NCBI GenBank assembly: GCA_964404285.1
Contig: CAYOJK010000007.1
Location: forward strand, 89,130-153,129
Direction: 5' to 3'
From: an uncultured bacterium
Lineage (GTDB): Bacteria; CSSED10-310
Length of the DNA stretch: 64,000 bases
Shown here: positions 187-63,387 of the stretch, one piece after another
Position numbering within the stretch: position 1 is the first letter of the stretch
How the letters are laid out: the number at the start of each line of letters is the position of its first letter
Notes under the pieces: generated by a model
What the model was told of the DNA's origin: nothing
The model's database searches: none
Seen by the model: only the letters and a program-made list of their open reading frames with translations
Made by a program: the position numbers and the translations under genes

Positions 187-594
187 TTATCTTTTCAGTT
201 CTGCAACCAAATTCATTTTTCGCTCGCTTTGACCATGCTTTAGTTCATGCTCCCAAATTCTTATCACTTTCCAATTATTTAATCTCAGTTCATTTGTGAC
301 TTTTTTGTCTCTGGCCCTGTTCTTTTCAATTTTCAAGTTCCAATAATCCTTGTTAGAAGAAGGCTTTCGACAATGATTGGGACAGCCATGCCAAAAGCAT
401 CCATCAATGAATACAGCTATTTTAAGCCGCGGAAACACAAAATCCGGTTTGCCGATCAATGGATAGTTTCGACGCCAGCCGGTGATGCCGTTTTCCTTCA
501 GGAAAGCAATAAATTTGAGTTCAGTGGATTTTGTGTTTTTCGATTTGACACAAGCCATAATTCGCGAACGCTCGGCTTTCGAAAATTTATCCAT
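187..594 (-). CDS. vsr: Very short patch repair endonuclease (T/G mismatch-specific)
   Basis: The 135-aa protein carries the hallmark Vsr motifs (FIDGCFWHGCPNHC, KPDFVF) and is the right size. It lies next to a C5-cytosine methyltransferase gene. Confidence 0.85.
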   Translation of the reverse strand: MDKFSKAERSRIMACVKSKNTKSTELKFIAFLKENGITGWRRNYPLIGKPDFVFPRLKIAVFIDGCFWHGCPNHCRKPSSNKDYWNLKIEKNRARDKKVTNELRLNNWKVIRIWEHELKHGQSERKMNLVAELKR

Positions 595-597
595 TGA

Positions 598-1335
598 TCA
601 CTCTATTATTTCTATCCAAGATGTATCATAATTGATTGATTTTAGAAGGTCTTCACGATTGATAAGTGGAGGCTTTCTTATCCTTATTGCAAGCCTATCT
701 TTTGGAACAGTTTCGATTATTGTGAATTGAGAACCGTGCGGTTGCCAAGTGAAAACATGCTGATCACTATTCTTTTCGAAGCCTTCCAAGTTATTGTTTT
801 TATTCCATTGCCACCAAAAATTTTCCATTCTGTACAAAATTGTTTCAAATTCAAAAACAGCGACCTCCAACAGATCGTCCGACTTAATAAGAACAACAGT
901 CCGAACATGCCTATACAGCTTTCGAATGGCAGCAACACGCGCATTCCAAATAGCAAGAATTTTTTCACCTAACTCATTTGGCTCCACTGCGCTAATTTTT
1001 CTGTCTCCATATGAATAAACTGGAGAATTCCTACCAGATATTAATCGCACCTTGGACACAGTTGATGGACTTTTACTCTTTACAGTTTTGGCGCCCCATG
1101 CCATTTGTTCTAAAACAACATCATCAAGTCCAACATTCGACGGTTTCCATTCTGCGTCTACAAGCCTTGAAAAGATTTCTTCCCAATCCGTTCCTTCCAG
1201 TCTTGCTGTTCCACGTGAAGCTAAAAGATACACAATCTCTCTTCCTAAATTAACAGCAAAATTTGGAGGAAACTTATTTAGCGGATAACGTGGCTTATAT
1301 TTCTCCACCGTTCGTAATCTTGGTTCTTTAACCAT
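598..1335 (-). CDS. Putative type II restriction endonuclease (cognate of the adjacent m5C methyltransferase)
   Basis: The 245-aa ORF is packed tightly between vsr and the methyltransferase on the same strand, with gaps of 3 and 10 nt. It has no recognisable housekeeping similarity. The assignment rests on position within an R-M cassette. Confidence 0.45.
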   Translation of the reverse strand: MVKEPRLRTVEKYKPRYPLNKFPPNFAVNLGREIVYLLASRGTARLEGTDWEEIFSRLVDAEWKPSNVGLDDVVLEQMAWGAKTVKSKSPSTVSKVRLISGRNSPVYSYGDRKISAVEPNELGEKILAIWNARVAAIRKLYRHVRTVVLIKSDDLLEVAVFEFETILYRMENFWWQWNKNNNLEGFEKNSDQHVFTWQPHGSQFTIIETVPKDRLAIRIRKPPLINREDLLKSINYDTSWIEIIE

Positions 1336-1345
1336 ATTTGACTTC

Positions 1346-2350
1346 CTATTTAAATATTCTCACTTGGCCATCAACTACATGAAAATGTTTCCATACGGGA
1401 TTCTCAGCCACTTGGTCGCTATGCCAATTCTGTGCAAGAAATAAATTTTTAATTACTGCTTTTGCAACCGGCACCGGCAAGCTATTCCCTGCTTGTTTTC
1501 TGGTTTGGCTATAATTGCAAATTATCTTAAAACTATCAGGAAAACCCTGTAAACGCAGCATCTCTCGTGAAGTAAGACGCCTTTCACCATTAACTAACAG
1601 GTAATTATAAGATGCTCCAGCACGCAAAGCGCAAGAAAACGGATAAGCGCTTATGTGCCCTGCCTTGTTTTCATGCCATATTGTAATCTCTTGTGTGGGT
1701 TTGTGCTTTTTCAAACGATTTTTTCTGATATGTTCCGACGCATAGTAAAATCTAGGCACATTCTCTTCTAAAACATCCTTTAATGGCTTCATTGGAAGTT
1801 TGTATCGAGGCCAATCAAAAGAACAAGCTTCTTTAAAACCTACAATAAAAACTCTCTCTCTTTTTTGTGGCAAACCGAAATCTAAAGCATTAAGCACGCG
1901 GTAGTCAATAAAATATCCCAAATCTTCCAAAGCTTGCATTATACGCGCAAGAGTCCTCCCTTTATTGTGACCAGTCAATAATTTGACATTCTCAAGCACA
2001 AATCCTTTGGGTTTTTTTGCCTCAATTATTCTGGCAATTTCAAAGAAAAGAGTTCCGCGTGTATCTTCAAAACCTTTCCTGTTCCCTATTATGCTAAATG
2101 GCTGACAAGGAAATCCGGCTAATAGCAAATCATGATCGGGTATGTCTTCTGACCTGATCGAAGTGATGTCTCCCGATGGCGTCTCATTAAAATTTTCTGT
2201 ATATACCCTACGGCAAGGCTCGTCAACATCACTAGAAAATACGCACTTAACCTTGACATCTAAATCATTGGCTACTTGTTCAACAGCAATCCGAAAACCA
2301 CCAATCCCACAGAATAAATCTATAAAAGTTATTTTAGTCTGATTCAGCAT
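1346..2350 (-). CDS. DNA (cytosine-5)-methyltransferase, Dcm/HhaI-like
   Basis: It has motif I FCGIGG, motif IV PCQPFS, ENV, and the QKRERVFIVG motif. The 334-aa length is typical of mono-specific m5C methyltransferases. Confidence 0.9.
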   Translation of the reverse strand: MLNQTKITFIDLFCGIGGFRIAVEQVANDLDVKVKCVFSSDVDEPCRRVYTENFNETPSGDITSIRSEDIPDHDLLLAGFPCQPFSIIGNRKGFEDTRGTLFFEIARIIEAKKPKGFVLENVKLLTGHNKGRTLARIMQALEDLGYFIDYRVLNALDFGLPQKRERVFIVGFKEACSFDWPRYKLPMKPLKDVLEENVPRFYYASEHIRKNRLKKHKPTQEITIWHENKAGHISAYPFSCALRAGASYNYLLVNGERRLTSREMLRLQGFPDSFKIICNYSQTRKQAGNSLPVPVAKAVIKNLFLAQNWHSDQVAENPVWKHFHVVDGQVRIFK

Positions 2351-2494: not shown

Positions 2495-3895
2495 TTATAT
2501 CCCATCCAAAAACATATCACCGACTTTAGTGACATTGCCGGCGCCTAACGTGATGACAACTGAGTTGGGTTGCACATTTTGTTTTAATAATTGAACAGCA
2601 TTTTCAAAGTCTGTGGCGGCAAAAACTCGCTTGCCATAGCGTTCCCGACAGCGCTCAACCAGTAAATCAGAAGAGATGCCCTGATGTTCCTGCTCTGATG
2701 CGGCATAAACCGGCAGAATAACAAGCATGTCCACACCCTCGAAAGCATCGACGAAATCATCCAGAAAAAACTTGGTTCTGGAAAACCGATGAGGTTCAAA
2801 AACGGCAATGATCGGCTTGTTCTGCCAATTTTTCAATGTCTCCAAAGTAGCTTTGATTTCTGTAGGATGATGCGCATAATCATCAATAATTAAAACACCT
2901 TTTTCGGAACCCTTCAGCTCCATTCGACGTCGGACTCCCTGATAGCTTGCCAGAGCCTGTTTGATACATTCCGGCGAAATCATCAATTGAAGCCCGACTC
3001 CAATAGCCGCCAAGCTGTTCAAAAGCATGTGTTTTCCAGGCGCCGGCAGTGTAAACAACCCTAGTGATTTAGATTGTAAATAAACTTCAAACGTCTGATG
3101 GTCATCGGAAGCTGATACGGGAACTCCCACCAGATCGTTGTTTTTGCCCAAACCGTATTTTAAGACGCGACGTCTATAGGTTCTAATAAGACTGCGTATA
3201 TTCGAATCATCTCCACATACAACGGCTGTACCGAAAAAGGGCACTCGATCAAGAAAGTTCCGAAACGTCCCTATTATTTCTCCAATGTCACGATAGTGAT
3301 CTAAGTGATCTTCTTCGATATTGGTAACCACTGCAATCTCGGGTGTCAGATGCAAAAAACTCGCATCACTTTCATCGGCTTCAGCTACCAAATAACTCCC
3401 GGCCCCCACCCTGGCGTTAGCTCCGATATTTCTGGCGTTTCCACCGATAATGACAGTGGGATCCAACTCGGCACAGCTCATTACCAACGCTATAAGTGAT
3501 GTCGTCGTCGTTTTGCCGTGTGTGCCTGCAACTGCAATCCCCGTCTGAAACCGCATTAACTCAGCCAGCAACTCAGCACGACGAATCACGGGAAGCCGCG
3601 CACGCCAGGCTGCAAGAATTTCCGGGTTGTCATTGCGAACCGCCGATGTATGAACAACCACATCAGCAGTTTGGATTTGCTCAGCACGATGGCCGATGAA
3701 AACATTTGCGCCCAATTGTTCCAGGCGTTTGGTTGTCGGCGAATCCTTAATATCAGAACCTTGAACATTAAAGCCAAGATTCAACAAAATCTCCGCCAAA
3801 CCTGACATGCCGACTCCACCTATTCCGACAAAATGAACCGTCTTAATTTTACCCGAAAACCATGGTTTTGAACGCATTTTTGTTTCCTCGATCAA
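2495..3895 (-). CDS. murC: UDP-N-acetylmuramate--L-alanine ligase
   Basis: It has the N-terminal GIGGVGMSGLAEIL motif and the Mur ligase central GTHGKTTTTS motif. It is 466 aa. Confidence 0.95.
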   Translation of the reverse strand: MIEETKMRSKPWFSGKIKTVHFVGIGGVGMSGLAEILLNLGFNVQGSDIKDSPTTKRLEQLGANVFIGHRAEQIQTADVVVHTSAVRNDNPEILAAWRARLPVIRRAELLAELMRFQTGIAVAGTHGKTTTTSLIALVMSCAELDPTVIIGGNARNIGANARVGAGSYLVAEADESDASFLHLTPEIAVVTNIEEDHLDHYRDIGEIIGTFRNFLDRVPFFGTAVVCGDDSNIRSLIRTYRRRVLKYGLGKNNDLVGVPVSASDDHQTFEVYLQSKSLGLFTLPAPGKHMLLNSLAAIGVGLQLMISPECIKQALASYQGVRRRMELKGSEKGVLIIDDYAHHPTEIKATLETLKNWQNKPIIAVFEPHRFSRTKFFLDDFVDAFEGVDMLVILPVYAASEQEHQGISSDLLVERCRERYGKRVFAATDFENAVQLLKQNVQPNSVVITLGAGNVTKVGDMFLDGI

Positions 3896-5511
3896 TCAAT
3901 TTTAAGCAGTTTGGTTATAGGCTGCTTCAACAAACGTAAAAAGCTGATATAAACTATTAAAAATACGGCGCTACCTAGACAGAGCCCCAACAAAGACTCA
4001 AAGAATATAGAATTGCCACCTACAAAGCGGATCTGCAAAAGCGAAACCGCCACCGATGAAATCAGTTTCTTAATAAAAGGCGCCGACAGATCAATCAGAT
4101 AAAATGAAGCCGCTGACGCTGCCAACGATGAAATCAGTATCTTGATAAAAGGCGCCAACAAGCTGAAATGGATAGCCCCATCCCCTGTCTGAGTTCTGAT
4201 TTTTTTCCTGATGAGAAGCAACAGTGCGACACCAGCGAAAGAATATGCGATCGATGTCGCCAAGGCCAGGCCGGCGTGCTGAAGAGGTGTTTTGACCAGC
4301 GCGTAATTTAACACAATGTTTATGAACATCATTGCAATTGAGACGATCACCGGTGTCAGCGTATCTTTCATGGAATTGAATGCGCGTGACAGAATTGAAA
4401 GCGCAGTCATACCGACCAAGCCAAGACTGTAATAAGCAAAAGCGGATGAGCTGAGTAGTACTGCTGTTTCATCAAAAGCTCCTCTTTGATAGACAATACG
4501 AATGATCAACTCGGAAAACACAAAGAGCGCCAATGTCGCAGGAGTCATGATAGCCAGCGTAAAACGCAACGCTCCGCTTATCAACCGAACGAACTCGTAA
4601 AGGTCTTCAACCGCATCGACCATGTGTTGAAAAAAAGTTCTCGCAATTCCTAAAACAAGGATGCCGTGCGGCAACTGAAGCAGTCGAAAAGAGTATCCCA
4701 GCGCGGCGATGCTTCCAGTTGAAACGATTGAAGCCAGTCTTCGGTCGACAAGGACAATCGTCTTATCCAAAATCGTTTCGACCAAAACGGGGCCGGCTAA
4801 CTTATTCACTTTTTTCACGTTGGGGTCCGACAGTGCAATTTTGTGGTGGTTGAATCTGAATGTTTGTCTGACGGTCGGCCACATGACAAGAGCTTCCAAG
4901 AGTCCACCGATCAATACCCCAACTGCAGCAGTCAATGGTCCATATCGAGACATACCGATCCACATAATCACGACGGTGCCGACGTTAAACATGGCGGGAG
5001 CAATACCGTAGATACCAAATTTTTCACGGGTTTGCAGTATCACGCCAAACATGGAAATTACGCTGATAATGACCAGAAAGGGGAACATGATTCGAGTCAT
5101 TGTAACAGCGAGCACATGCGTTTCGGGATCAAAACCCGGCGCGAATAGTTGAACCAGCCAAGGCGCTACCGCCATACCCAACGCGGTGACAAACGATCCT
5201 ATTGAAATCAGTAAAAACAATGTTGTTTTGGCTAAATTTCCTGCAGCCTCCTTGTCGCCGGCTCTATCCAGCAGTTTGTAGGTGGGAAGCATCGCGGTTT
5301 CGAGCAGTTTTTCTCCAAAAATTCGTCTAAAAAGGTTTGGAAGCGTATAAGCAATCACGTACGCATCCATCACGGATCCGGACCCTAGAAAAAAAGCAAG
5401 AGCCATCTCGCGTATCAAGCCGGTGACCCGGCTGATCATCGTCGTAGAACTCAACTTTAAAAAACCACTAAGAATTCTTGACTGGCGAGATTTTTCTTGG
5501 CTCATACTCAA
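3892..5511 (-). CDS. murJ: Lipid II flippase MurJ (MviN)
   Basis: The N-terminus matches the MurJ signature (ISRVTGLIREMALAFFLGSGSVMDAYVIAYTLPNLFRRIF). It is a polytopic membrane protein of 539 aa. Confidence 0.9.
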   Translation of the reverse strand: MSMSQEKSRQSRILSGFLKLSSTTMISRVTGLIREMALAFFLGSGSVMDAYVIAYTLPNLFRRIFGEKLLETAMLPTYKLLDRAGDKEAAGNLAKTTLFLLISIGSFVTALGMAVAPWLVQLFAPGFDPETHVLAVTMTRIMFPFLVIISVISMFGVILQTREKFGIYGIAPAMFNVGTVVIMWIGMSRYGPLTAAVGVLIGGLLEALVMWPTVRQTFRFNHHKIALSDPNVKKVNKLAGPVLVETILDKTIVLVDRRLASIVSTGSIAALGYSFRLLQLPHGILVLGIARTFFQHMVDAVEDLYEFVRLISGALRFTLAIMTPATLALFVFSELIIRIVYQRGAFDETAVLLSSSAFAYYSLGLVGMTALSILSRAFNSMKDTLTPVIVSIAMMFINIVLNYALVKTPLQHAGLALATSIAYSFAGVALLLLIRKKIRTQTGDGAIHFSLLAPFIKILISSLAASAASFYLIDLSAPFIKKLISSVAVSLLQIRFVGGNSIFFESLLGLCLGSAVFLIVYISFLRLLKQPITKLLKID

Positions 5512-6701
5512 TACACGTCCTTGGATAACATCAAATTGACAATTCTTTCCGCAGCATCAGGCTTACCAAGCTCTTTAGCTTTTTGAGCCATAATACCCAA
5601 TCGAGCAGGATAGGCATTCAATGATTTAATGGTATCAGCAATCCGCACTCCGGAGACTTCGCTCTCAGGCATTACAAAAGCAGCGCCGGCACGGCTTAAT
5701 TCCCCGGCATTCGTGGTTTGGTGGTTTCGCACAGCTCCCGGCCAAGGAACAATAATGGAAGGAATTCCCCGCGCTGTTATTTCTGCAAGCGTCATAGCGC
5801 CGGCTCGGCATAAAATTAAATCAGCTGCTGCTAACGCTTGATGTGTATCATAAATAAATGGAAACGGGTGATAATTTGAACGTGGGGATATCGTTTGGAT
5901 AAATTTTTCATATTTCCCTTTACCTGTGGCGTGTAAAATCTGCCAGTTTCCAAGAATCAACCCATCGCGATCTAGATTCATCAGATCACGAACCAGAGAG
6001 TTCAACACTTCTGAGCCCAAGCTACCCCCGATTACCAAGAGCGTCCTTTTCGATGGGTCCAATTCAAATTTCACGATACCGGATTGCCTGTCAGCCGTGA
6101 TAATCTTTCTCAATACCGGATTTCCAACTAACTCAACACATGTGCGTGACGGCAACTGACTTCGAGTTATTTCATAGGCAGTTCCAACCCCATCTACCCA
6201 ACGAGCCAGTAATTTGACAGTGAGGCCGGGAACCGAGTTTTGCTCCAATAGCCAAGTGCGTATTCCAGCTATTTTCGATGCTATCATTACGGGCGCACAA
6301 ACATAACCTCCAGTTCCTAACACAAAATCCGGCGCAAATTCCTGAATAATTGCTCGAGCTTGCCTAACCGGACGCAAGGTCATCCAGGAAGCCATTGTTC
6401 CCACGTTGCGGGAGATCGCTTTAAAGCTAATTGATCGATCCAATCCTCTTAATTTTAGGGTAGTCAAAGGAATATCGAAGCGTGGAACCAAATCTTCTTC
6501 ATGACGTCCTCTAACTCCAACCCAAAGGATTCTTGGATGACGTATACGTTCACGAACTGCCTCGACAACGGCGAGTCCAGGCGTGATATGCCCACCCGTT
6601 CCGCCACCTGCAATCAACAATCGAAAATTATTAGACACTTTAACTCTCCCAAAAAGTATTATAAAAAGGTTTACACCAAAGACAATTTTTACTACTCTCA
6701 A
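5508..6701 (-). CDS. murG: UDP-GlcNAc:lipid I GlcNAc transferase
   Basis: It has the LLIAGGGTGGHITPGLAV N-terminal motif and a GT28 C-terminal domain. It overlaps murJ by 4 nt. Confidence 0.9.
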   Translation of the reverse strand: MRVVKIVFGVNLFIILFGRVKVSNNFRLLIAGGGTGGHITPGLAVVEAVRERIRHPRILWVGVRGRHEEDLVPRFDIPLTTLKLRGLDRSISFKAISRNVGTMASWMTLRPVRQARAIIQEFAPDFVLGTGGYVCAPVMIASKIAGIRTWLLEQNSVPGLTVKLLARWVDGVGTAYEITRSQLPSRTCVELVGNPVLRKIITADRQSGIVKFELDPSKRTLLVIGGSLGSEVLNSLVRDLMNLDRDGLILGNWQILHATGKGKYEKFIQTISPRSNYHPFPFIYDTHQALAAADLILCRAGAMTLAEITARGIPSIIVPWPGAVRNHQTTNAGELSRAGAAFVMPESEVSGVRIADTIKSLNAYPARLGIMAQKAKELGKPDAAERIVNLMLSKDVY

Positions 6702-6730: not shown

Positions 6731-7318
6731 ATGAAACAAAATACCAAAATAAAAGTGCTTCGTGAAATAAAAGATTGGTCTCGCAGCCTGTTATGGGGAG
6801 CCATTTTCGTTTATTTTTTTACCAGCTACGTATTCAAAGCCTATAAAGTTGAAGGCAGATCGATGCAACCCCTTTTGCAAAATGGTGAACGTATATTTGT
6901 CAATCGCTTAGTTTATCGGTTAGATGATATTGAACGGGGAGATATTGTTGTATTTTATCATCCTGCGGAACCCAAGGATTTTTTTATAAAACGAGTTTTG
7001 GGATTGCCGGGTGAAACGATCGAGGTCAGACGAGGCAAAGTGTACATCAATAATCAGCCAATAGACGATCAATTTGTTCCAGACTATTTCAGTAGCCGTG
7101 AAAATGTTAAAAGATTGATGATTCCTCAAGGCCACTATTTTGTTTCAGGAGACCATCGTAATCAAAGTTACGACAGTCGTATATGGGCCAACGAACCAGA
7201 CAAGTCACCATTTGTTCCTGAACAGTATATAATGGGTCGAGCATCATTTCGTTATTGGCCGTTAGCATCATTTGGCGTGATTAAAAATAATTTTATCCCT
7301 TTGGAGTCTTCAAGCTAA
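6731..7318 (+). CDS. lepB: Signal peptidase I
   Basis: It has the S26 motifs GRSMQP, RGDIVVF, KRVLGLPGE and GDHRNQSYDSR. Confidence 0.9.
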   Translation: MKQNTKIKVLREIKDWSRSLLWGAIFVYFFTSYVFKAYKVEGRSMQPLLQNGERIFVNRLVYRLDDIERGDIVVFYHPAEPKDFFIKRVLGLPGETIEVRRGKVYINNQPIDDQFVPDYFSSRENVKRLMIPQGHYFVSGDHRNQSYDSRIWANEPDKSPFVPEQYIMGRASFRYWPLASFGVIKNNFIPLESSS

Positions 7319-7321: not shown

Positions 7322-9589
7322 ATGGCCTTGACACCCAACCCTCTAACCTCTGCTGTTTCCCTTGCCGATGAACCTAGCGCTATTCGTCGGTCTTGGCATA
7401 GTTGGATCACTCTTCAAAGCCAAAAAGCTTGGGTTTTGCCACACGTAGAACGACGATTCGATGCCATTGCCTACAAGAATATCACGGTATTTACTGCGCC
7501 TATTTTTCCTATATGGCTGGCCCACCTACTACGGAATCGCCTTCTCACTGAAGGATGGCCTGCACCTAAATACCTTTTAACAACTGGAAATATTTTTAAG
7601 CGACAAGCAGATACTCTTGCTTCAATACAAAATGAACCGGTCTTTTTTCTAGAATTGGGGATTGATCCAAAGCTTTCACATACCGCAAAAGAATGGATCG
7701 TTCAATTATTGGAAGAAGCTGCAATTCAAAATAAAACACTTCAATTCATACCACTCATATTCCTGTGGAATCGATCACCAAAACGCCAATACCTTTATCC
7801 TCTATATGGTTTTCTTCGTCACCGGCATCACAATGTGATCAGCACAGGGCTTCCAAAAACGATTCAACCAGGAATAACGAAAGAGATACCCTCAGCTCAA
7901 ACAATCCGCCGTGAACAGCTTGCTGCCTGGAACCAAGAAAGCCGATGCATAATCGGCGATAAAAAGGAGCCTATAAGAAAAACTATACAGACTATTCAAT
8001 CTGAACCGGTATTGTTGAATCTGTTGAAAAGCTTGGCTGGTCAAGGAAAAGATACGTTGCCGACCCTTCAATCCCGAGTCTCGGCTTATGTGCGGGAAAT
8101 TGCCGCTGATTATTCCCATGTTTCACCATGGGTCTGGGAAAAAGCCCTAGGACCATTCTTGAAGAAAAACTTTTCTTCCCTTGACTTTGATCACGACGGT
8201 TTGGACGAACTGCGAATTTTACTCCGAAAACGCGATATTGTTATTCTAACCCCAACACATCGAAGCCACCTGGACTATATTTTCATCTCATTCGCTATCT
8301 ATAAACAAGGGCTGGCCTGTCCACTTGTCGCAGCAGGACAAAATCTCTCTTTCTGGCCGATGGGATACGTGTTTAGAAAAACTGGAGCGTTTTTCATCAG
8401 AAGAACTTTTCGTGGACTTGATATCTATCCCCATGTATTCCGCTCATATTTATGGATGATTTTGCGAAAATTTCAACCGGTCGAATTCTTTATTGAAGGA
8501 GGTCGGAGTCGAACCGGCGCTCTTCTTCCTGCAAAACTTGGCATGCTAAACATGATTATTGACGCCTACACTGCAGGAAAACTCAAAGATGTTAAATTTG
8601 TACCACTAGCTGTCAATTATGACCGTATTATAGAAGAAGATAGCTACATCCGTGAATTGAAAGGCCTGCCCAAACAAACAGAACATGTGTCCAGCCTTTT
8701 TAAAAGCCGACACTTACTTAAAAGACATTTTGGAAATGTATGCTTTGCTATCGGTAAACCTGTCTCATTGGCTGAAACACTTACAACTAACGCTTCACAA
8801 ACTGAACAAAAAGATATGCTCAGCATGGTGATTATGAATAGCCTCAGGCTATCCATGCCGATAACATCAACTGCCCTGGTTGCCACCGTTCTAATGGCCA
8901 TTGATCCCAACCATGAAATTAGTTCGAATGAAATAATTGCCAACGCATGTGGTTTGCTACAAATCATAGAAGAGGTTCATCCAGACGCTAGCGTTGCCAG
9001 GGAATGTTCAGATAAATCCAAACTGGATTCAGTGTTACAATCCGCTCTGTTACGAATGCAAGAATTTCAAAATATTCTTCCAACTCAAGAACCTGACAAA
9101 TGGAAATTGAACGAAAACCGCCGCTTCCAAGTGGATTATTTAAGAAATAGTATTGTCAGCCTGCTCTTAGCGCCGGCGCTGGCAATCATTTATAACTCCA
9201 AAGAATGGGATTCTCCTGAGTCTATCAAACTATTGGAAATTTTCTGCCCTGGAATTCATCCTGTACCAACTCATGTCTTTAAACACGAAATTGATAAAAG
9301 CCTTACCCTTTTACCAGGCTGGTCCTTCGAACAGAAAAAACTCTTAATCCAAACTGTGTCACCCGTTTTAAACTTAATACAAAATATTCAAGCTATCGTC
9401 ATGTCAAAAAATATCGACGTTAAAAAGGCGACAACTCAGGTTTGGAACGATATTTTTAATCAGGTGATCGACAAAAAAACTAAAGAAACCTATCCGGAAA
9501 TTTGTACAAAATTCTTTGTTAACGAACTATTTAAAGCATTTAAGCAAAGTGGCAGTGAACCTGCTGATCACACCGACGGATCAGAATAA
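7322..9589 (+). CDS. plsB: Glycerol-3-phosphate 1-O-acyltransferase
   Basis: It has the GPAT blocks HRSHLDY, FFIRR, FIEGGRSRTG and VPLAVNYDR. It is 755 aa. Confidence 0.8.
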   Translation: MALTPNPLTSAVSLADEPSAIRRSWHSWITLQSQKAWVLPHVERRFDAIAYKNITVFTAPIFPIWLAHLLRNRLLTEGWPAPKYLLTTGNIFKRQADTLASIQNEPVFFLELGIDPKLSHTAKEWIVQLLEEAAIQNKTLQFIPLIFLWNRSPKRQYLYPLYGFLRHRHHNVISTGLPKTIQPGITKEIPSAQTIRREQLAAWNQESRCIIGDKKEPIRKTIQTIQSEPVLLNLLKSLAGQGKDTLPTLQSRVSAYVREIAADYSHVSPWVWEKALGPFLKKNFSSLDFDHDGLDELRILLRKRDIVILTPTHRSHLDYIFISFAIYKQGLACPLVAAGQNLSFWPMGYVFRKTGAFFIRRTFRGLDIYPHVFRSYLWMILRKFQPVEFFIEGGRSRTGALLPAKLGMLNMIIDAYTAGKLKDVKFVPLAVNYDRIIEEDSYIRELKGLPKQTEHVSSLFKSRHLLKRHFGNVCFAIGKPVSLAETLTTNASQTEQKDMLSMVIMNSLRLSMPITSTALVATVLMAIDPNHEISSNEIIANACGLLQIIEEVHPDASVARECSDKSKLDSVLQSALLRMQEFQNILPTQEPDKWKLNENRRFQVDYLRNSIVSLLLAPALAIIYNSKEWDSPESIKLLEIFCPGIHPVPTHVFKHEIDKSLTLLPGWSFEQKKLLIQTVSPVLNLIQNIQAIVMSKNIDVKKATTQVWNDIFNQVIDKKTKETYPEICTKFFVNELFKAFKQSGSEPADHTDGSE

Positions 9590-9665: not shown

Positions 9666-10742
9666 TCAGCGAGATCGGCCATATTGAAGCTTTGAAAAAA
9701 GCTCAGTCAGTACAGGGTCGTCTTTATCTTCTTTTTCAGCGATAGTCTGCGGTAAAGCCATTTCTTCGACATACTCGCCTACAATCAATCCCAACCGGAG
9801 CTCCCCTAGTTCGCCGGGACTTTGATCAACACCATAGATTAAATCAACATCATCACCCCAATTTGAGGTTATCAGATGAGCAACCTCTTCAACTTCGAAC
9901 AGGCTTAACGGCCCATCAGACCGAAGATGCATTAAAAGACTTGCTTTACGATTCAGAAAGCTTTCTACAGAATAATCCACCATGATACTCTCGGCTACCT
10001 CTTGAGCACGATGTTGTCCTCTCGCCCGTGCAGTTACTATCGTACTGCTCGACGATCCCGTCAAAGCTATTCGAATACGATTGAAATCGATCGGAACCAT
10101 TCCTGGAGCCAAAGCATCCATCAATGCCTGAATTTTATCAGCAAAACTCGTGTTGAAAGCCTCCAAATAACCTGGAAAATCCGCTTGATCAAATACCACA
10201 GGAACTTCTTTCATAGCACACAATTCACTGATCGTTCCCCTAGCTGTCATATGACGTTTTCTTCCAACAATTTCAGCATCCGGTAAACTCAATAATGACA
10301 AACAGGGAATTCCCGCTTTATTGAAAAGGTTAGCTAGAGCGGTCGTAACTCCGGAACCAATACCATCACCGGGCTGAGCAATTAAAAGCACAAAAAATGA
10401 GGACAGGGTCAATTCCAGTAAATCCGAGCTGATTTCAGCCATAGCTTTTGAAGCGGCTAGGGGATCACCACTGCTAAAACCGCGATAACGAGTATTTAAA
10501 GCGATATGAATATAATCATCCTGTAAATTGGGCAAAGAATCATCCCAGTTAATGCGAAACAATAACGGTCGAAAATCTTTCCTAAAAGATATTTTTTGCA
10601 ATACTTCAGCTCCAAAATCACCTATTGCTATGACAGCAATCTCACCCTTAGGTCTGACGTGACCGTCTCTCCTGTTCATGATCCCCCTCCTTATCTTCAA
10701 ACTTGTCCTGCCAAATCGATAATGGCCAGATTTCAAAATCAA
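9666..10742 (-). CDS. Degenerate FtsZ/tubulin-like protein (probable non-catalytic FtsZ paralog)
   Basis: It is colinear with FtsZ over its whole length, but the nucleotide-binding motifs are substituted. GGGGGN is replaced by GDFGAE, GGGTGTG by GDGIGSG, NTDAQ by NWDDS, and the T7 NxDFAD by IDFNR. The true start probably lies downstream, near 10679. Confidence 0.55.
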   Translation of the reverse strand: MILKSGHYRFGRTSLKIRRGIMNRRDGHVRPKGEIAVIAIGDFGAEVLQKISFRKDFRPLLFRINWDDSLPNLQDDYIHIALNTRYRGFSSGDPLAASKAMAEISSDLLELTLSSFFVLLIAQPGDGIGSGVTTALANLFNKAGIPCLSLLSLPDAEIVGRKRHMTARGTISELCAMKEVPVVFDQADFPGYLEAFNTSFADKIQALMDALAPGMVPIDFNRIRIALTGSSSSTIVTARARGQHRAQEVAESIMVDYSVESFLNRKASLLMHLRSDGPLSLFEVEEVAHLITSNWGDDVDLIYGVDQSPGELGELRLGLIVGEYVEEMALPQTIAEKEDKDDPVLTELFSKLQYGRSR

Positions 10743-11073
10743 GCCCGGTTCCCATCACAACATACCGATCTGCTTTATTCGCCAGATCCAAATGCTTAAA
10801 CTGAACCCTTCCTTGCAAATCGATATTCAGAGACATAACGTTCAACATAAAAGCACGCCGTCTATCTCTGACATCAGGATCTATGGATTTTCCAGGTATC
10901 TCCACTTCAAGGACCTGTTTCAATCGACCCGGATCAGTGGCGACCCAATAGTTATCCATCGGGTAAACACACAATTCTCCTCCACGTTCAATATTTCCGC
11001 TTTTAAACAATGAGGTCGGCAAGGTGATTCGACCTTGTTTATCCAACTGTATAAAACTTGTATTAAAATACAT
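10648..11073 (-). CDS. mraZ: Transcriptional regulator MraZ
   Basis: It has the two DxxGR repeats (LDKQGRITLP and IDLQGRVQF) and an FEIW motif. It is 141 aa. Confidence 0.8.
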   Translation of the reverse strand: MYFNTSFIQLDKQGRITLPTSLFKSGNIERGGELCVYPMDNYWVATDPGRLKQVLEVEIPGKSIDPDVRDRRRAFMLNVMSLNIDLQGRVQFKHLDLANKADRYVVMGTGLDFEIWPLSIWQDKFEDKEGDHEQERRSRQT

Positions 11074-11119
11074 TTTTAAGCAAATCCAAGTTTTTGATTC
11101 TTATTAGAACCTATTTACT

Positions 11120-11149
11120 ATTAATAAGCAAAATTTCAACTATGTCAAG
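11120..11149 (-). promoter_or_regulatory. Candidate sigma70 promoter for mraZ (TTGACA, 16-17 nt spacer, TATTAA)
   Basis: The minus-strand -35 and -10 hexamers lie about 47 nt upstream of the mraZ start. Confidence 0.3.
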
Positions 11150-11202: not shown

Positions 11203-12744
11203 CTAGACCAACCGAATTCCATCAGCATATACTGCTTCAATCTTTATGTTTCGTCCGCGAGTAGAGATTGGATCACTGTCCAAAATCACTAAATCAGCCG
11301 GGGAGCCTGGCATCAACAAGCCTCTTTTCATTTTGCCGGCTTCTATCATTGTTGGAGCAAATGTCATTGCTTTTAATGCATCTGTCGCTTTCATGCATTC
11401 TTCCGGATGCCAGGATCGCTTGTTCCAGGACTCTTTAACGTGTCGCCTGGTCACTGCCGCATCAAAATAGTGAAGAGGATTTTCATCATCTATTGGAGCA
11501 TCGGAGCCAAAAACAACACATGCTCCTGATTCTGCCAGTGATCCGTATGGATAAAAAAGACCCTCTTGTTCGCTCCAGAAACGTTCGACCATTTCGATAT
11601 CAGAGATCATATGGCAGGGTTGCACCGAGGCACAAATATCGTATTGAGCAAATTTTTCTATATCTTCCCTAGCAATCAGTTGCGTATGTTCAATGCGCAA
11701 GCCTTTTAAATCCGGAAATGCTTTTCGAATGGTAATCAACGCTTGCAACGCATTTTTGACAGCTCGATCACCTATTGCATGTATCGATGTTGGAAAGCCG
11801 TGAGAAGCCGCCCACATTGACAAATCAGCTAACTCTTCAGGCTCCATGACATCGATACCTGTGTTCTTTGGTTCACCGGTATATGGCTTGCTCATTGCTG
11901 CAGTTCTAGAACCTAGGGCGCCGTCGGCATATAGTTTCAAACCACCTAGATGAATTGATGGCCATTGTTGACCGAATTTATAGCCACGTGAAATCACTTG
12001 GTCAAAATCTTCCAAGTTGACGAAAGCCATAATTTTGAGCGGAATTTTTTCTGTAACAGACATATCGATCAGCAAATCCAATTCTGAGATACCTTCGAAT
12101 GAGTGCACCGCAATTATTCCTTTAGCATGAAGTCCGCCCCAAGCTTTACGCAGTAAGTCACGTTTTTCTGAATCCAGTCGAGCTGGGATTTTTTGGCGAA
12201 TAATATCGACGGCTGTTTCCCTGAGAACACCCGTAAGGCTGCCATCCGGTCTGCGATCGAAACGACCTCCCGGCGGATCTGAAACCGTGTCGTCTATCGA
12301 CAGTTCCTGTAAAGCCCGGGAATTCAGCCATAATGAATGGCCATCTTTGGATAACAAAGCCACAGGATTGTCCTGGCTAAACCCGTCTATTTCCATGCGG
12401 TCCGGAAATCCGCCTTGGTGTCGGCAAGCTGCTTCCCAGCCGCGTCCTTGCACCCATTGAAACCGAGAAGCCTCATCGATTCGCATTTTAAGCTTCTGTT
12501 GAATATCCTCTAAACAAAGTCCATCCAATTTAAGCAACGATTGAGCTATTCCATAATTGATCAAATGAATATGGCAGTCAGTGAAACCAGGAACAACCCA
12601 ACTCAATCTGCCATCAAGGCAGTTATCATCCGCAAACGTGATACTGTCAATTTTGCCATCTTTTAGCGTCAATAAGCCGCACTGAAAACGCCGATGTTTT
12701 TGATTCCATATCATTATTTTGTCTAAACATACGTTTTGTGTCAT
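11203..12744 (-). CDS. Amidohydrolase family metal-dependent hydrolase
   Basis: It has the VVPGFTDCHIHL metal-binding motif and amidohydrolase-3 domain architecture. It is 513 aa. Confidence 0.8.
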   Translation of the reverse strand: MTQNVCLDKIMIWNQKHRRFQCGLLTLKDGKIDSITFADDNCLDGRLSWVVPGFTDCHIHLINYGIAQSLLKLDGLCLEDIQQKLKMRIDEASRFQWVQGRGWEAACRHQGGFPDRMEIDGFSQDNPVALLSKDGHSLWLNSRALQELSIDDTVSDPPGGRFDRRPDGSLTGVLRETAVDIIRQKIPARLDSEKRDLLRKAWGGLHAKGIIAVHSFEGISELDLLIDMSVTEKIPLKIMAFVNLEDFDQVISRGYKFGQQWPSIHLGGLKLYADGALGSRTAAMSKPYTGEPKNTGIDVMEPEELADLSMWAASHGFPTSIHAIGDRAVKNALQALITIRKAFPDLKGLRIEHTQLIAREDIEKFAQYDICASVQPCHMISDIEMVERFWSEQEGLFYPYGSLAESGACVVFGSDAPIDDENPLHYFDAAVTRRHVKESWNKRSWHPEECMKATDALKAMTFAPTMIEAGKMKRGLLMPGSPADLVILDSDPISTRGRNIKIEAVYADGIRLV

Positions 12745-15376: not shown

Positions 15377-15449
15377 GCCGAGGTAGCTCAGTCGGCAGAG
15401 CGAGGGACTGAAAATCCCTGCGTCGGGGGTTCGATTCCCTCCCTCGGCA
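15377..15449 (+). tRNA. tRNA-Phe (anticodon GAA)
   Basis: It folds as a cloverleaf. The acceptor stem GCCGAGG/CCTCGGC is a perfect 7 bp. The anticodon loop is CTGAAAA, the T-loop is GGTTCGATTCC, and the discriminator is A. No CCA is encoded. Confidence 0.9.
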
Positions 15450-17062: not shown

Positions 17063-17159
17063 GGGAGCGGGTGGTGTCTGGTGATGCCTCCGGTCTTCAA
17101 AACCGGTATGGGGTCTTAAAAGGGTCCTAGGTGGGTTCGATTCCCATGCGCTCCCGCCA
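17063..17159 (+). tRNA. selC: tRNA-Sec (selC), anticodon UCA
   Basis: It is 97 nt with a long variable arm, the anticodon stem-loop CCGGT-CTTCAAA-ACCGG (anticodon TCA, which reads UGA), a GTGGG-TTCGATT-CCCAT T-arm, a long 7-8 bp acceptor stem, a G discriminator and an encoded CCA. The acceptor pairing at position 8 is imperfect (G-G) in my fold. Confidence 0.8.
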
Positions 17160-43785: not shown

Positions 43786-44709
43786 CTATTGAGAGAGATC
43801 TTCAGGAATAAAATAGTATGGATTGACCGGTCTGCCTTCGATTCGCACTTCATAATGAAGATGTGAATGAGTTGACCGCCCTGTGGAACCAAGAACCCCG
43901 ATTTGCTGACCCCTGCTGACACGATCCCCTGTATTGACGTCTTTCCTGTGAAGATGAGCATATAAGGTCGATATGCCATAACCATGGTAAATACTTATGA
44001 CATTTCCATAAGACGGACTTCTGGACACCAATGCTACAACACCATCTGCAGTTGCATACACAGGAACACGTACACTATGAGCGATATCGATTCCGGTATG
44101 CATCTTAATCGAACCCGTAAAAGGATCTTTACGGCGACCAAATGTTGAGGAAATATAACCACCATTGATCGGTCTCAAGGTTGGAAGCGCGGATATAAAA
44201 CCACTGCGTGTATCCAGAAACCTGGCTAAAAGAATACTTTTATCGAATTCATGGCCGGTTTCAAGTTCCAATTCTTCCATTTCCGACCACATATTTTCCA
44301 GAAACTCGCTTTCATAATTCAAATACGTCCGCATCTTGACGTTCTGTTCAGCAACTTCTCGGATAGGACCACCCAATCCACTTTCCATTACCGGATCACC
44401 ACGCCCCATCTTTTGCTCAATAGTCTGATTCATTCGACGGATAGAAGAAAGATCTGTTCGAATTTTTCCCATTCTCTCAGCAAAAAAACGTAATTGAGCA
44501 TTGCGTTCATCCAGTTTCTCCTGATACTGCTGACGCTCTCCCGCTAAAGAATGATAACGACATATTCCTCTGCCAAACCAGATAAAACCAGCAAAAAACA
44601 CAACACATAAAGCAATCGCTGTATATGCTGATAAACGGGAAACTCTGAAACGACGGTAATGTCCTGTCGTTGTCTCCCGAATTGCTATGTCCCATCCCTT
44701 ACGCATCAA
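43786..44709 (-). CDS. M23 family metallopeptidase (murein endopeptidase/activator-like)
   Basis: It has a coiled-coil N-terminus and a C-terminal LytM domain with HTGIDIA and HSHLHYEVR. Confidence 0.85.
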   Translation of the reverse strand: MMRKGWDIAIRETTTGHYRRFRVSRLSAYTAIALCVVFFAGFIWFGRGICRYHSLAGERQQYQEKLDERNAQLRFFAERMGKIRTDLSSIRRMNQTIEQKMGRGDPVMESGLGGPIREVAEQNVKMRTYLNYESEFLENMWSEMEELELETGHEFDKSILLARFLDTRSGFISALPTLRPINGGYISSTFGRRKDPFTGSIKMHTGIDIAHSVRVPVYATADGVVALVSRSPSYGNVISIYHGYGISTLYAHLHRKDVNTGDRVSRGQQIGVLGSTGRSTHSHLHYEVRIEGRPVNPYYFIPEDLSQ

Positions 44710-44942: not shown

Positions 44943-47108
44943 GTGTTGACAGCCCGATTGCCAAACCCTAAAGTGCTTCAAGACACTCAAACGGAGGTCC
45001 TTATGCGAACAATTAATGCTCATACTAACCTTAAATATCGACTCAGCATTTTATCTCTAATTATAATCACTTTGACTGCCTGCCAAATAAAGCAAGCCCC
45101 TAAAACTCAAATCACCCAACAAACACCAAAATCACTCATAACTAGTGATTATCTTTCGCAGATTATTGCGAATGCGCCCGATTCTATCGATGCCGCTGAA
45201 GCTCACTACCGACTTGGTCTGATTAAAATAGAAGAACATCAACAGGATAAAGCCCTCGGACATTTCATAGCAGCTACCCAGAACCCTGATCATTTTCCAT
45301 GGAATATCACCTCAGAAATAGAAATCATGAGTATGAATATCTCTTCAGAGCCAACGGTCTTTGAACTGCTATCAGCGAAAAAAGCTTTATTGGAAGAAAG
45401 TGACAACATCCCGGATCATCTTGTTCATCGTGCAAATTTTCATCTTGCCAGATGGTATTTTGCCGACGAAAATTGGGAAGCTGTGATTGATACTCTGGAT
45501 GTTGTTGTTCCAAATTCACTGAATTCTGCCGAAATTATTACCTATTTCATTATGAATGGCGCCAGTGAATCACGATTAGGCCATTATCAAAATGCTTCAG
45601 ACTTTTTATTTAAAGCTCTCGATACTGATTATTCAGAGCGTTATCCTGCATTGATCGAGCTGATGGACATTCTGAAACAAACAGGCAAAGAAGTGAAAGC
45701 AGTCGAATTAGCTCTGGAACACTCCTCATTATTAACTCAAGGCGCTGTTGCCGAGAAATTTATGGACATCCTGGATTGCTATTCAAATCTTGAAGATTTG
45801 AAAACTCTAATCGAACAGCAGAAACCGGGTCCAGGGTTCTTCTTTTTAAGCCTCAAATACATTGATCGTCTCGCAGAATTCGATGATCCTGTTATAACTC
45901 TTAATTGTGCTGATGAACTTGCCTATAGCTATCCAGATTATTTGGATTACATCGTACCTCTAAGACATCAGTTGAAAAATGCTATCCAAGTAAACCCAGA
46001 AAAAATAGGTCTCCTTCTACCGCTTTCCGGGCAATTGGCATCGATCGGTCACAGTATTTACCGCGGCGCTCAACTTGCCCTGTCAGATTACCAACAAAAA
46101 GGCGGACATATTCCATTTTCACTTGTTCTTCAGGATGTCGGTGACACGCCTGAGACGATAGCAGATGCTTTCAAAAAACTGGTTGAGCAAGAAAACGTTG
46201 GCGCCATCGTCGGCCCCGTGCGCAGCGCGGTTACGGAAATGCTGTTGCCCTGGTGTTCAGCCTATCGAATACCCTTGATAACCCCAGGAAGTTCTCAGGA
46301 AAATATTGTTGAGAAATCCCGTTGGGCTTTTCGCTTATATCCTTCCATTTTATACGAAATGCGGGAACTTGTTCAGTTTTCAGTGCGGGAGCTTGGTTTA
46401 TATCGTTTTGGTTGCATTTATCCGGATACTGACTATGGCCAAGAGGCCTGCCGTATTATTGAAGAGATTATTGAGTCTGAACAAGCGGTAATGGTATTCA
46501 AACGCCAGTATCCACGTGATTTGGCAACGATTGGTGCACGCATAGGATTACTATCAGACAGCTCAACAGACATCATTGTCATACCTGATGTAGCCGAGCG
46601 TGCCGCCGTTGTTGCGGGACATATTCGCTATAAAGAAGCCCTGACGCCAACAATCGTAGGAACCAGCGCTTGGGAAAGACCAGAATTATTGGATATTGCC
46701 GGCCAACATCTTGAAGGTAGTTACTTCGTTAGTTCATATCCTGAATCTATTGGCAGCAGAAAAGACATTTCAAACAGATATTATGCCAGGTTTGGAGAGC
46801 AAGCCAATGCGTTTGCATTACGTGGTTACGAAGCAGTTTTTTTGATTATGTCAGCTGTTGAAAAAGGGGTCAAATATCGATCTGAATTGCGAGCCCATTT
46901 CACGTCCGAAAAGGGGTTCATCGGTCTCGATGGACCCTCCCGTTTTTCACAGTCAGGCGAATACGAACCTCCTGTCACTGTTTTCAAAATCCATAATTCA
47001 GAGTATACCCCTTGGCGCCTAATCCCTATCCGTTTGAACCAGAGTTCTCAAACTGAAGAAAATAGCTCTCAAAATCACACTATAGGGAGTCCCAATCCAG
47101 GTCAGTAA
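44943..47108 (+). CDS. LpoA-like lipoprotein (TPR + type-I periplasmic binding fold)
   Basis: It has the lipobox LTAC, an N-terminal TPR-like region and a C-terminal LivK-like PBP domain. It is convergent with and overlaps the PBP1A gene. Confidence 0.55.
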   Translation: MLTARLPNPKVLQDTQTEVLMRTINAHTNLKYRLSILSLIIITLTACQIKQAPKTQITQQTPKSLITSDYLSQIIANAPDSIDAAEAHYRLGLIKIEEHQQDKALGHFIAATQNPDHFPWNITSEIEIMSMNISSEPTVFELLSAKKALLEESDNIPDHLVHRANFHLARWYFADENWEAVIDTLDVVVPNSLNSAEIITYFIMNGASESRLGHYQNASDFLFKALDTDYSERYPALIELMDILKQTGKEVKAVELALEHSSLLTQGAVAEKFMDILDCYSNLEDLKTLIEQQKPGPGFFFLSLKYIDRLAEFDDPVITLNCADELAYSYPDYLDYIVPLRHQLKNAIQVNPEKIGLLLPLSGQLASIGHSIYRGAQLALSDYQQKGGHIPFSLVLQDVGDTPETIADAFKKLVEQENVGAIVGPVRSAVTEMLLPWCSAYRIPLITPGSSQENIVEKSRWAFRLYPSILYEMRELVQFSVRELGLYRFGCIYPDTDYGQEACRIIEEIIESEQAVMVFKRQYPRDLATIGARIGLLSDSSTDIIVIPDVAERAAVVAGHIRYKEALTPTIVGTSAWERPELLDIAGQHLEGSYFVSSYPESIGSRKDISNRYYARFGEQANAFALRGYEAVFLIMSAVEKGVKYRSELRAHFTSEKGFIGLDGPSRFSQSGEYEPPVTVFKIHNSEYTPWRLIPIRLNQSSQTEENSSQNHTIGSPNPGQ

Positions 47109-57110: not shown

Positions 57111-57300
57111 CAGACAAAATCATTATTTCATTTGATGGAGGCAACGACGACCTACCGCAAAATAGTCTCAAAGCCAGCGATCCTCGGTCAGCGCAACTCG
57201 TGAACCCGATTGAACAACTCGATCATTTTTACCAGCGTCCGGCTATCGTGCATCAGGAAATCGGTCATTTGCCGGTTTGAGATCGTCCGACATCTTCAAT

Positions 57301-60582: not shown

Positions 60583-60587
60583 CCTCT

Positions 60588-61820: not shown

Positions 61821-61942
61821 AATACTGCCCAGCCACCGCAGAGGCGGGACGTTTCATGTATTCTTTGCGTCAATCTTTTAATCAAGTCCACTGTGCCGAT
61901 TTGTATTTTATATTCTGGAAACTCGATCTTGTCGTTGCTCAT
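61817..61942 (-). CDS. Small upstream ORF (41 codons) translationally coupled to sbcD
   Basis: ATG 61942 is preceded by the SD AAGGAG 8 nt upstream. Its stop TGA overlaps the sbcD ATG (ATGA). It is below the ORF-track size cutoff and has no recognisable family. Confidence 0.3.
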   Translation of the reverse strand: MSNDKIEFPEYKIQIGTVDLIKRLTQRIHETSRLCGGWAVL

Positions 61943-62035
61943 AAAATCGCTCCTTGTTTTTCGTCACCTCAGTGATGGCAGCCTTCACAGACATAACACT
62001 TCTACTCCTTGACCCTTGTGTTTGCGCCATCATCG

Positions 62036-62266
62036 TCAGTCCCGGCGAACTGTTAAGAAATTCTTAACAGTTGCCTGGGGCGTTAACTCTCCCTCCTCAA
62101 AAATGTTGCGGATGTGCATGCTGATATTCGGAACAGTGGTTTGGAACAACTCCGCTATCAATTGTTGCGTTAGCCAGACGGTCTCATCCTGCAAGCGCAC
62201 TTCCAGTTTAATATGCCCGTCATCGGACTGATAGACGATGATTTCACCCTTGTTCTCACAGTTCAT
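62036..62266 (-). pseudogene. Truncated RhuM-family (virulence-associated) gene fragment, N-terminal 76 aa only
   Basis: It has the canonical RhuM N-terminus (GEIIVYQSDDGHIKLEVRLQDETVWLTQQLIAELFQTTVPNISMHIRNIFEEGEL), then diverges and stops. Full-length members are about 330 aa. Confidence 0.6.
62051..62071. repeat. Perfect 10-bp inverted repeat CTGTTAAGAA-A-TTCTTAACAG at the RhuM truncation point
   Basis: The palindrome was read directly from the sequence. It coincides with the point where the RhuM homology ends. Confidence 0.6.
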
Positions 62267-63361: not shown

Positions 63362-63387
63362 CCCTTCACGATTGCCAAAAAAGCGGT

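Follow-up and report, generated by a model that had tools for sequence, protein, structure and literature searches.

The stretch analysed here (the window) is 64,000 nucleotides (nt) of contig CAYOJK010000007.1, from an uncultured bacterium of the CSSED10-310 lineage, and it carries on its reverse strand a gene for the regulator MraZ followed directly by a gene derived from ftsZ. The first of these, mraZ, lies at 10648-11073 (-) in window coordinates and encodes 141 amino acids (aa) in two SpoVT/AbrB-like halves, each with one DxxxR motif (DKQGR and DLQGR). The protein passes the Pfam MraZ model (PF02381) with 39.7 bits against a cutoff of 23 and two matched stretches, in agreement with a preliminary description of this DNA that had recognised a genuine MraZ with two repeats. 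It is nonetheless a divergent MraZ, matching TIGR00242 with an expect value (E) of 8e-8 and 32.3 bits, under the equivalog cutoff of 98.35. The second gene, referred to below as the ftsZ-like gene, lies at 9666-10679 (-) and encodes 337 aa, in which an FtsZ core is joined by a variable linker (residues 303-321) to a C-terminal peptide that is conserved.

The open reading frame (ORF) of the ftsZ-like gene is 9666-10742 (-) when read from a TTG at 10742. The true start is better placed at the ATG at 10679, because a conserved N-terminus (‘MN..’) across the homologues marks this codon and because a Shine-Dalgarno sequence, AAGGAGG, can be read at 10686-10692 (-), within the 3′ end of mraZ and 6 nt upstream of the ATG. 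From this start the two genes overlap by 32 nt in the window; the previously suggested overlap of 30-95 nt spans both candidate starts. A G-rich element is also found 5′ of the ftsZ-like start in four related loci (L001, L002, L004 and L006), and the overlap is 4-8 nt in the remaining orthologues. Given the overlap and the Shine-Dalgarno sequence inside mraZ, the two genes look translationally coupled.

The region upstream of mraZ is 129 nt long, and beyond it, on the same strand, is an Amidohydro_3-family gene (11203-12744 (-)) that occupies this position in every related locus. Within the 129 nt there is a promoter-like element at 11120-11148 (-), composed of TTGACA at 11143-11148, a 17-nt spacer and a putative -10 element, ATTAAT, at 11120-11125. 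The TTGAC is invariant in seven aligned orthologous upstream regions, and a generic scan missed the element because the -10 is non-consensus. The same scan, covering promoters and terminators, found no terminator after the ftsZ-like gene. A candidate MraZ operator, TAGG-N6-TAAG-N10-TTGG, occupies 11086-11113 (-), between the -10 and the mraZ start. In its relaxed form (TAGG-N6-WARG-N10-TWRG) the pattern occurs once in the window against 0.05 expected matches, a figure that is suggestive only, as the boxes were derived from the same sequences in which they were counted. It is single and conserved in position in seven of the nine related loci examined; TARG boxes phased at 10 bp are present in L008 and L010, and in L007 they take the form TAAG. 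In the MraZ operator solved for Mycoplasma genitalium, boxes of four bases, spaced by 6 nt, come immediately downstream of the -10 (PMC12957436), and the match of the box layout to that operator makes it plausible that MraZ autoregulates the pair through the candidate boxes. With overlapping genes, and a shared promoter-like element furnished with phased boxes of the MraZ type, the locus fits the two-gene unit headed by mraZ that had been proposed.

The ftsZ-like gene is an FtsZ by descent. A phmmer search of the Protein Data Bank (PDB) aligned its product with Bacillus subtilis FtsZ over residues 13-305 (E 3e-17), upholding the earlier report of an end-to-end alignment, and the protein matches TIGR00065 over positions 19-330 of 353 with an E of 3e-13. 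Its scores fall below the family cutoffs, at 49.7 versus 295.2 bits for TIGR00065 and 23.9 versus 33 bits for Pfam Tubulin, and narrowly so for Pfam FtsZ_C (26.9 versus 27 bits). An AlphaFold model built on a 42-sequence alignment has a mean predicted local distance difference test score of 76.8 and presents the FtsZ-type two-domain fold, including the FtsZ-type C-terminal domain. When this model was compared with the PDB by Foldseek, all 50 of the 50 listed matches were FtsZ, the top ones with template modelling scores of 0.72-0.83. The structural check that the preliminary description had proposed thus returned an FtsZ fold, and the outcome it had feared, no relationship to FtsZ or tubulin, did not arise. 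A profile of the clade, searched against PDB sequences, is nearest to bacterial FtsZ (E 6e-41), followed by archaeal FtsZ (about 1e-30), CetZ (5e-11), TubZ (1e-4) and BtubA/tubulin (3e-3). We also considered membership of Tubulin_2, TubZ or CetZ, and rejected it, as Pfam gave no Tubulin_2 match and the clade profile is far nearer to bacterial FtsZ.

Within this conserved fold, the nucleotide-contact loops have all been rewritten. Loops were compared in HMMER alignments to B. subtilis FtsZ, since MAFFT matched the T6-H7 region of the family wrongly to that of canonical FtsZ; B. subtilis numbering is used except for T7, where E. coli numbering is followed. The T1 loop (10605-10628 (-)) reads AIGDFGAE where the canonical loop is GVGGGGNN, so that G20-G-G-G-N-N25 becomes G-D-F-G-A-E with the changes G21D and G22F; the GDFG is near-invariant within the window family. 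In T2, N-T-D-A-Q is replaced by N-W-D-D-S, with N44 alone kept family-wide, and in T3, G-L-G-A-G-A-N-P by G-F-S-S-G-D-P. The T4 loop, which carries the tubulin signature, lies at 10350-10379 (-) and reads AQPGDGIGSG rather than AGMGGGTGTG, that is, G-M-G-G-G-T-G-T-G has become Q-P-G-D-G-I-G-S-G (G107D, T109I/V), and its residues A, Q, P, G, D, G, G, S and G are invariant in the family alignment. T5 has gone from P-F-T-F-E-G-R-K-R to P-D-A-E-I-V-G-R-K-R, with E139V and R143 retained. The P-N of T6 is missing, and with it the asparagine, and the stretch from S6 to T7 is 11 residues shorter than in canonical FtsZ; H7 retains an LEAF with the F183 equivalent. The T7 loop and start of H8 (10071-10106 (-)) read PGMVPIDFNRIR, where canonical FtsZ has PGLINLDFADVK; N207-x-D209-F-A-D212 is here P-I-D-F-N-R, with N207P and D212R, and D209 kept. 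Across 12 family members of 51-100% identity, these motif states vary little or not at all. The window protein matches none of the T4 tubulin signature [SAG]GGTG[SAT]G, the T1 pattern GGGGxN and the T7 pattern NxDxxD, and the substitutions in T1, T2, T4 and T7 that led the preliminary description to regard every GTP-contact motif as replaced are each seen in the HMMER alignment.

In E. coli FtsZ, substitutions at D212 and D209 abolish GTPase activity, and T108A in the GGGTGTG loop reduces GTP binding; single changes at several of the positions altered here suffice to cripple that protein. The motif changes therefore argue strongly that the ftsZ-like protein would be GTPase-dead. A nucleotide-free state of the window-branch protein can also reasonably be inferred, because two Gly-to-Asp changes fall in the phosphate loops. 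The opposite possibility is that this is a working, nucleotide-dependent FtsZ which binds GTP or some other nucleotide in a non-canonical way. In its favour, R142 (B. subtilis R143), F175 in the LEAF (F183), D198 (E. coli D209) and the G.G.GSG backbone of T4 survive, and no segments of the family are better conserved than those of the pocket. Set against these are the two aspartates in the phosphate loops, the lost T6 asparagine, the shortening of T6-H7 by 11 residues, and E139V, D212R and N207P, and we regard this possibility as very improbable.

The gene is clearly maintained by selection. Relative to the orthologue in L001, an 83%-identical relative, the ratio of nonsynonymous to synonymous substitution rates (dN/dS) is 0.06 for the ftsZ-like gene, with a dS of about 1.5, and ∼0.2 for mraZ. 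The value of 0.06 rules out a pseudogene or a chance ORF. The lowest entropies in the family are found in H5 (0.20 bits), T7-H8 (0.32), T6 (0.39), T4 (0.41) and T5 (0.62), whilst the acidic linker (residues 303-321) varies freely at 2.0 bits. In an FtsZ protofilament the contact between subunits is made by two faces, the nucleotide pocket on one side and the T7 loop on the other. The former pocket and the T7 face are the most constrained parts of the protein, their changed chemistry notwithstanding. After the linker comes the conserved C-terminal peptide, VLTELFSKLQYG (9681-9716 (-)), with the family pattern E.F..L, in which E326, F328 and L331 are invariant in the family alignment. AlphaFold predicts a helix here (residues 322-333) at low confidence. 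The tails of deeper orthologues (IPFVK, SFAK or MFEK) are like the canonical (D)IPxF(L)(R/K), and the peptide resembles the tail by which FtsZ docks to FtsA, ZipA or SepF, suggesting a putative docking role.

Such constraint on a rewritten pocket would also fit a relic FtsZ that has left division altogether, being kept for another structural or ligand-binding role whilst the cell divides by different machinery; the former pocket, as the most constrained part, would then serve a new ligand or partner. There is a natural precedent in the archaeon Nitrosopumilus maritimus, whose FtsZ homologue Nmar_1262 lacks the GGGTGTG and the NVDFAD T7 loop and does not polymerise in yeast, and in which Cdv proteins are the presumed means of division (PMC3684127). 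Both are natural FtsZ homologues retained without the GTP-binding motif and T7 loop. Nmar_1262, however, is archaeal, has no link to MraZ or to the cluster of division and cell-wall (dcw) genes and resides in a Cdv host, whereas the CSSED10-310 case is bacterial, in an organism that makes peptidoglycan and has outer-membrane assembly genes, and combines a conserved C-terminal peptide with the MraZ link. The conservation of an FtsZ-type C-terminal peptide, and the fact that the gene stays coupled to MraZ and beside murG and murC in almost all lineages, speak against a departure from division. Nor did an alternative division machinery come to light, although no search aimed at one could be made. 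We consider the relic explanation quite improbable.

The distribution of the gene is narrow and orderly. Word-index searches returned 14 close clusters and then fell abruptly to canonical FtsZ. A profile search of 1.84 billion representatives gave seven matches at E<1e-30, with a graded series (P0121-P0127) at 107-232 bits and canonical FtsZ at no more than 96 bits. Source names and accessions place the family members in the rare candidate phylum CSSED10-310; they include the Zodletone metagenome-assembled genomes (MAGs) JAFGEQ, JAFGMN and JAFGLW, the metagenome contig SWBX01000357.1 and further MAGs (named CSSED10-310 MAGs are described in PMC8248873). A metagenome scan with an alignment of the deep clade, whose patterns also match canonical FtsZ, recovered ordinary FtsZ at 79 of 80 loci, the sole true member being L014, the locus of P0121. 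One further protein stands near this clade. P0275, a 489-aa FtsZ linked to ftsA in an unrelated organism (L013 6764-9470, from Logan SRR30592913), has altered T2 (MSLDER) and T7 (NLGLDEL) loops with an intact GGGTGSG, and groups beside the CSSED10-310 clade in the neighbour-joining tree.

We compared gene order across the phylum in 14 related loci, of which 10 are distinct. All 14 carry one conserved gene block, which starts with DUF507 genes, DUF4416, a tetratricopeptide repeat protein, aspartokinase, a TrmA-like methyltransferase and DUF1573 genes, continues through the amidohydrolase, mraZ and the ftsZ-like gene to the convergent plsB-like gene and lepB, and ends with murG-(murJ)-murC and, in most loci, a SpoIIE-type phosphatase. 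This is the survey of the pair that had been called for, and in 12 of the 14 it finds mraZ directly before the ftsZ-like gene. Because the same block recurs across the phylum, the ftsZ-like genes are orthologues, vertically inherited at one fixed locus through CSSED10-310. The two loci without mraZ are L011 (GCA_964472395.1) and L012 (ERZ27257500), where the amidohydrolase and the ftsZ-like gene are only 109 nt apart (L011 9891-10001); this gap has its own TTGACA-N17-TATCAT. In deeper lineages the ftsZ-like gene, as called, runs at its 3′ end into that of the convergent plsB-like gene, by ∼80-110 nt (L007 10968-11080, L008 10953-11047, L010 10944-11032, L011 10941-11023), whilst in the window the two lie 76 nt apart; the overlap could be genuine or the result of an over-long gene call.

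Fixed synteny bears directly on the idea of a toxin-antitoxin or defence module, with MraZ as antitoxin or regulator and the FtsZ mimic as toxin. MraZ does have the fold of AbrB/MazE-like antitoxins according to its Pfam description, and the two genes overlap tightly. PADLOC, however, gave nothing for the FtsZ-like protein and matched MraZ only at E 0.007; there are no mobile-element genes beside the pair, purifying selection on each of the two genes is strong, and a fixed chromosomal position with vertical inheritance throughout a phylum is not what such a module would lead one to expect. We consider this extremely improbable and, on the PADLOC result and the synteny, treat it as ruled out.

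Comparison across the clade also gives the order in which the motifs decayed, with T7 going first and the phosphate loops afterwards. The whole clade is without the canonical T2, T3, T5 and T6 and without D212 of T7, this position being R, S, T, Q, Y or W. Among the deeper members, most retain the G.GG.G of T1 and a T4 of GLGGGVGSG, and from the same locus P0125, P0123 and P0121 pass both Pfam Tubulin and FtsZ_C, with P0127 passing Tubulin only. The T4 glycines were lost in the window family and independently in P0122 and P0127, and acidic or polar residues arose repeatedly at G21 of T1, namely D in the window family, N in P0122 and E in P0126. A neighbour-joining tree separates the clade, as a monophyletic group, from canonical FtsZ, and the window family represents the derived state. 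The most decayed FtsZ-like protein is P0127, of L011/L012, with a T4 of ALGGACASG and a T7 of PCDVSWF.

The surroundings of the pair bear on where the gene came from. About 3 kb from the ftsZ-like gene are murG (5508-6701 (-)), murJ (3892-5511 (-); absent in L008 and L011) and murC (2495-3895 (-)), all assigned by Pfam and in the same order in the loci that reach that far. Between murG and the ftsZ-like gene, and convergent with the latter, are lepB (6731-7318 (+)) and the gene for a plsB-like acyltransferase (7322-9589 (+)), also identified by Pfam and conserved in every related locus extending far enough. Four dcw genes (mraZ, the ftsZ-like gene, murG and murC) thus fall within 9 kb as part of a conserved block, and the preliminary description overstated the case in placing the pair outside any dcw context. 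It was right that murG-murJ-murC are nearby without rsmH, ftsL or ftsI, and the 64-kb window contains none of rsmH, ftsL, ftsI, ftsA or a second ftsZ; mraZ heads the operon and the ftsZ-like gene comes next with no rsmH. Nor did the window or any related locus yield ftsA, with ∼20 kb visible per genome, the ftsZ-like gene following mraZ instead. Our preferred reading of the locus is a dcw cluster that has been shattered, so that its first gene, mraZ, abuts its last, ftsZ.

Over the same ∼20 kb per genome, and in the window, tblastn found no canonical ftsZ. The top canonical FtsZ matches, P0130 and P0135, come from assemblies that are not among the known CSSED10-310 MAGs, and the SecA adjoining P0130 is only 50% identical to the SecA of the window. 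These results matter most for the principal alternative, favoured in the preliminary description, that the gene is an extra, dead FtsZ paralogue which modulates a canonical FtsZ encoded elsewhere. As a filament capper, its T7 face with the arginine could dock on a GTP-bound FtsZ end without causing hydrolysis, whilst the degenerate top face recruits no further subunit; its C-terminal peptide might also compete for membrane anchors. The T7 face is indeed nearer to canonical FtsZ than the pocket face, the C-terminal peptide is retained, and the pair evolves fast relative to the neighbouring housekeeping genes. That the motifs have decayed progressively and differently by lineage, and that one lineage has lost mraZ, is also typical of non-essential accessory genes. 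The absence of a canonical ftsZ from the window and from the portion of each genome seen, however, speaks against it, as do the deeper orthologues, which look like ordinary FtsZ lacking T7 and pass the Pfam cutoffs. The paralogue would moreover require an ftsZ duplication plus an insertion right behind mraZ, at a locus beside murG and murC such as the original dcw copy would occupy; it is simpler to suppose that the internal dcw genes were removed in one excision. With its locus fixed and vertically inherited and its deeper orthologues passing the Pfam cutoffs, a sole, diverged FtsZ fits at least as well as an extra copy. We therefore find the paralogue explanation somewhat unlikely, and regard the ftsZ-like gene as most likely a diverged form of the FtsZ native to the lineage, not a copy added to it.

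The account that we favour, with confidence that is no better than even, is that of an MraZ-controlled operon, a vertically inherited remnant of the dcw cluster, which encodes a hydrolysis-independent FtsZ scaffold that is probably the lineage's own diverged FtsZ. The internal dcw genes, from rsmH through ftsA, would have left, bringing mraZ directly against ftsZ. The catalytic residues of T7 would have been the first to go, phylum-wide, with D212 becoming R, S, T, Q, Y or W, and the window branch would subsequently have lost the phosphate-binding glycine loops T1 and T4. The FtsZ fold, both longitudinal-interface regions and the putative C-terminal docking peptide would have been retained under selection. 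Such a protein would not hydrolyse GTP and, in the window branch, probably would not bind it; it may form an FtsZ-type assembly or scaffold, independent of hydrolysis and tied to division and envelope growth. Speculatively, the aspartates in the pocket and the arginine in T7 are complementary and might form a nucleotide-free interface. A more specific proposal, which we consider unlikely, is that CSSED10-310 has no canonical FtsZ, dividing with or around one incapable of GTP hydrolysis, and that the window-branch protein assembles head to tail and nucleotide-free, the T1 and T4 aspartates replacing the phosphates and the T7 arginine replacing the contact made by Mg2+ and the catalytic aspartate.

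Several observations weigh against the favoured account, in addition to the origin of the operator boxes mentioned above. The status of the ftsZ-like gene as sole orthologue is presumptive, the search for a canonical ftsZ or ftsA having covered the window and ∼20 kb per genome. The retention of R142 and F175, in a pocket that is the most conserved region of the protein, means that a ligand may still bind. The L011 and L012 loci, being without mraZ, indicate that coupling to MraZ is not obligatory. Finally, the pair has diverged faster than its neighbours, as would also be expected of an accessory paralogue: between the window and L007/L008, identity is 30-32% for the ftsZ-like protein and 32-34% for MraZ, compared with 46-54% for MurC, 53-55% for MurG and 65-69% for LepB.

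It is instructive to set the pair beside better known systems. The window protein shares with canonical bacterial FtsZ the two-domain fold, the end-to-end alignment, the architecture of core, linker and C-terminal peptide, and the linkage to dcw genes. It differs in that T1-T7 are all altered and T6-H7 is 11 residues shorter, in that its gene follows mraZ and not ftsA, and in its fast evolution, down to 30% identity within one phylum. In beta-tubulin, the T7 residue is Lys254 (E254 to K), and the nucleotide at the corresponding interface stays unhydrolysed and structural. The replacement of an acidic T7 residue by a basic one, as in D212R of the window protein, offers a possible analogy; in tubulin, however, the partner pocket binds GTP, whereas the window-branch pocket, with its aspartates, probably excludes phosphate. 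The nearest counterpart in gene arrangement is the minimal dcw operon of M. genitalium, mraZ-mraW-MG_223-ftsZ, with a dispensable ftsZ (PMC8475190). There, as here, reduction of the dcw cluster has left mraZ and ftsZ together in a short operon, and the candidate boxes upstream of the window pair resemble the phased 4-nt boxes that MraZ binds in M. genitalium. In M. genitalium, however, rsmH/mraW and an ftsA-like gene lie between mraZ and ftsZ, FtsZ keeps its GTPase motifs and the organism is wall-less, whereas CSSED10-310 makes peptidoglycan. Divergent bacterial members of the FtsZ/tubulin superfamily are also represented by FtsZl-1/Tubulin_2 (Makarova and Koonin 2010, via PMC9871819), described there as matching Tubulin_2 without FtsZ_C, having large extensions and occurring sporadically. 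The window protein, by contrast, matches Tubulin and FtsZ_C only, is compact at 337 aa and is inherited vertically in one phylum.

Other genes of the window relate to the envelope. BamD-like and SurA-like outer-membrane assembly genes are present. The reverse strand also encodes an M23 peptidase at 43786-44709 and, at 47080-49431, a class A penicillin-binding protein; the 64 kb contain no SEDS, FtsI, FtsA or FtsQ gene. The slot downstream of murC is variable. In the window (187-2350 (-)) it holds a Vsr endonuclease, a 245-aa ORF and a C-5 cytosine methylase, in L001 (18461-20842) an N6/N4 methylase and a HinfI-like enzyme, and in distant relatives a SpoIIE phosphatase. Between the TrmA-like and aspartokinase genes there is a selenocysteine tRNA (17063-17159 (+), anticodon TCA, Rfam 76.6 bits), and the organism probably uses selenoproteins; a tRNA-Phe is found at 15377-15449 (+). 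Positions 56000-64000 have a G+C content of 0.48-0.54, against 0.39-0.46 elsewhere in the window, and contain SbcC-like (57301-60582) and SbcD-like (60588-61820) genes, two ORFs without a Pfam match and a GNAT acetyltransferase. This segment may be foreign DNA or a mere shift in composition.

In the literature available we found no description of this FtsZ-like family, of a two-gene mraZ-ftsZ unit or of a link between CSSED10-310 and FtsZ. The closest precedents are the four-gene dcw operon of Mycoplasma, the degenerate FtsZ of Thaumarchaeota and laboratory T7 mutants, and to our knowledge the present pair would be the shortest MraZ regulon. The GTPase of FtsZ powers the treadmilling that, in nearly all bacteria with a wall, is believed to organise the synthesis of the septal wall, and the exceptions known to us are bacteria that simply lost the gene; Planctomycetota and Chlamydiota are in this FtsZ-less state. 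Here, instead, is a gene kept under strong selection whilst its enzymatic apparatus has been dismantled stepwise, in a course that can be traced across one phylum. If it is the only FtsZ of the lineage, a walled bacterium with outer-membrane assembly genes would either divide on a static FtsZ scaffold or have repurposed FtsZ, and would represent an evolutionary intermediate toward FtsZ loss; should a nucleotide-independent polymer prove true, it would be the first such FtsZ, in a living intermediate toward the FtsZ-less state. If it is a second copy, it would be a natural FtsZ of the dominant-negative type under the master regulator of the dcw cluster, and hence a new endogenous modulator of division. 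Either way, the family offers a set of natural variants with which to ask which functions of FtsZ need GTP.

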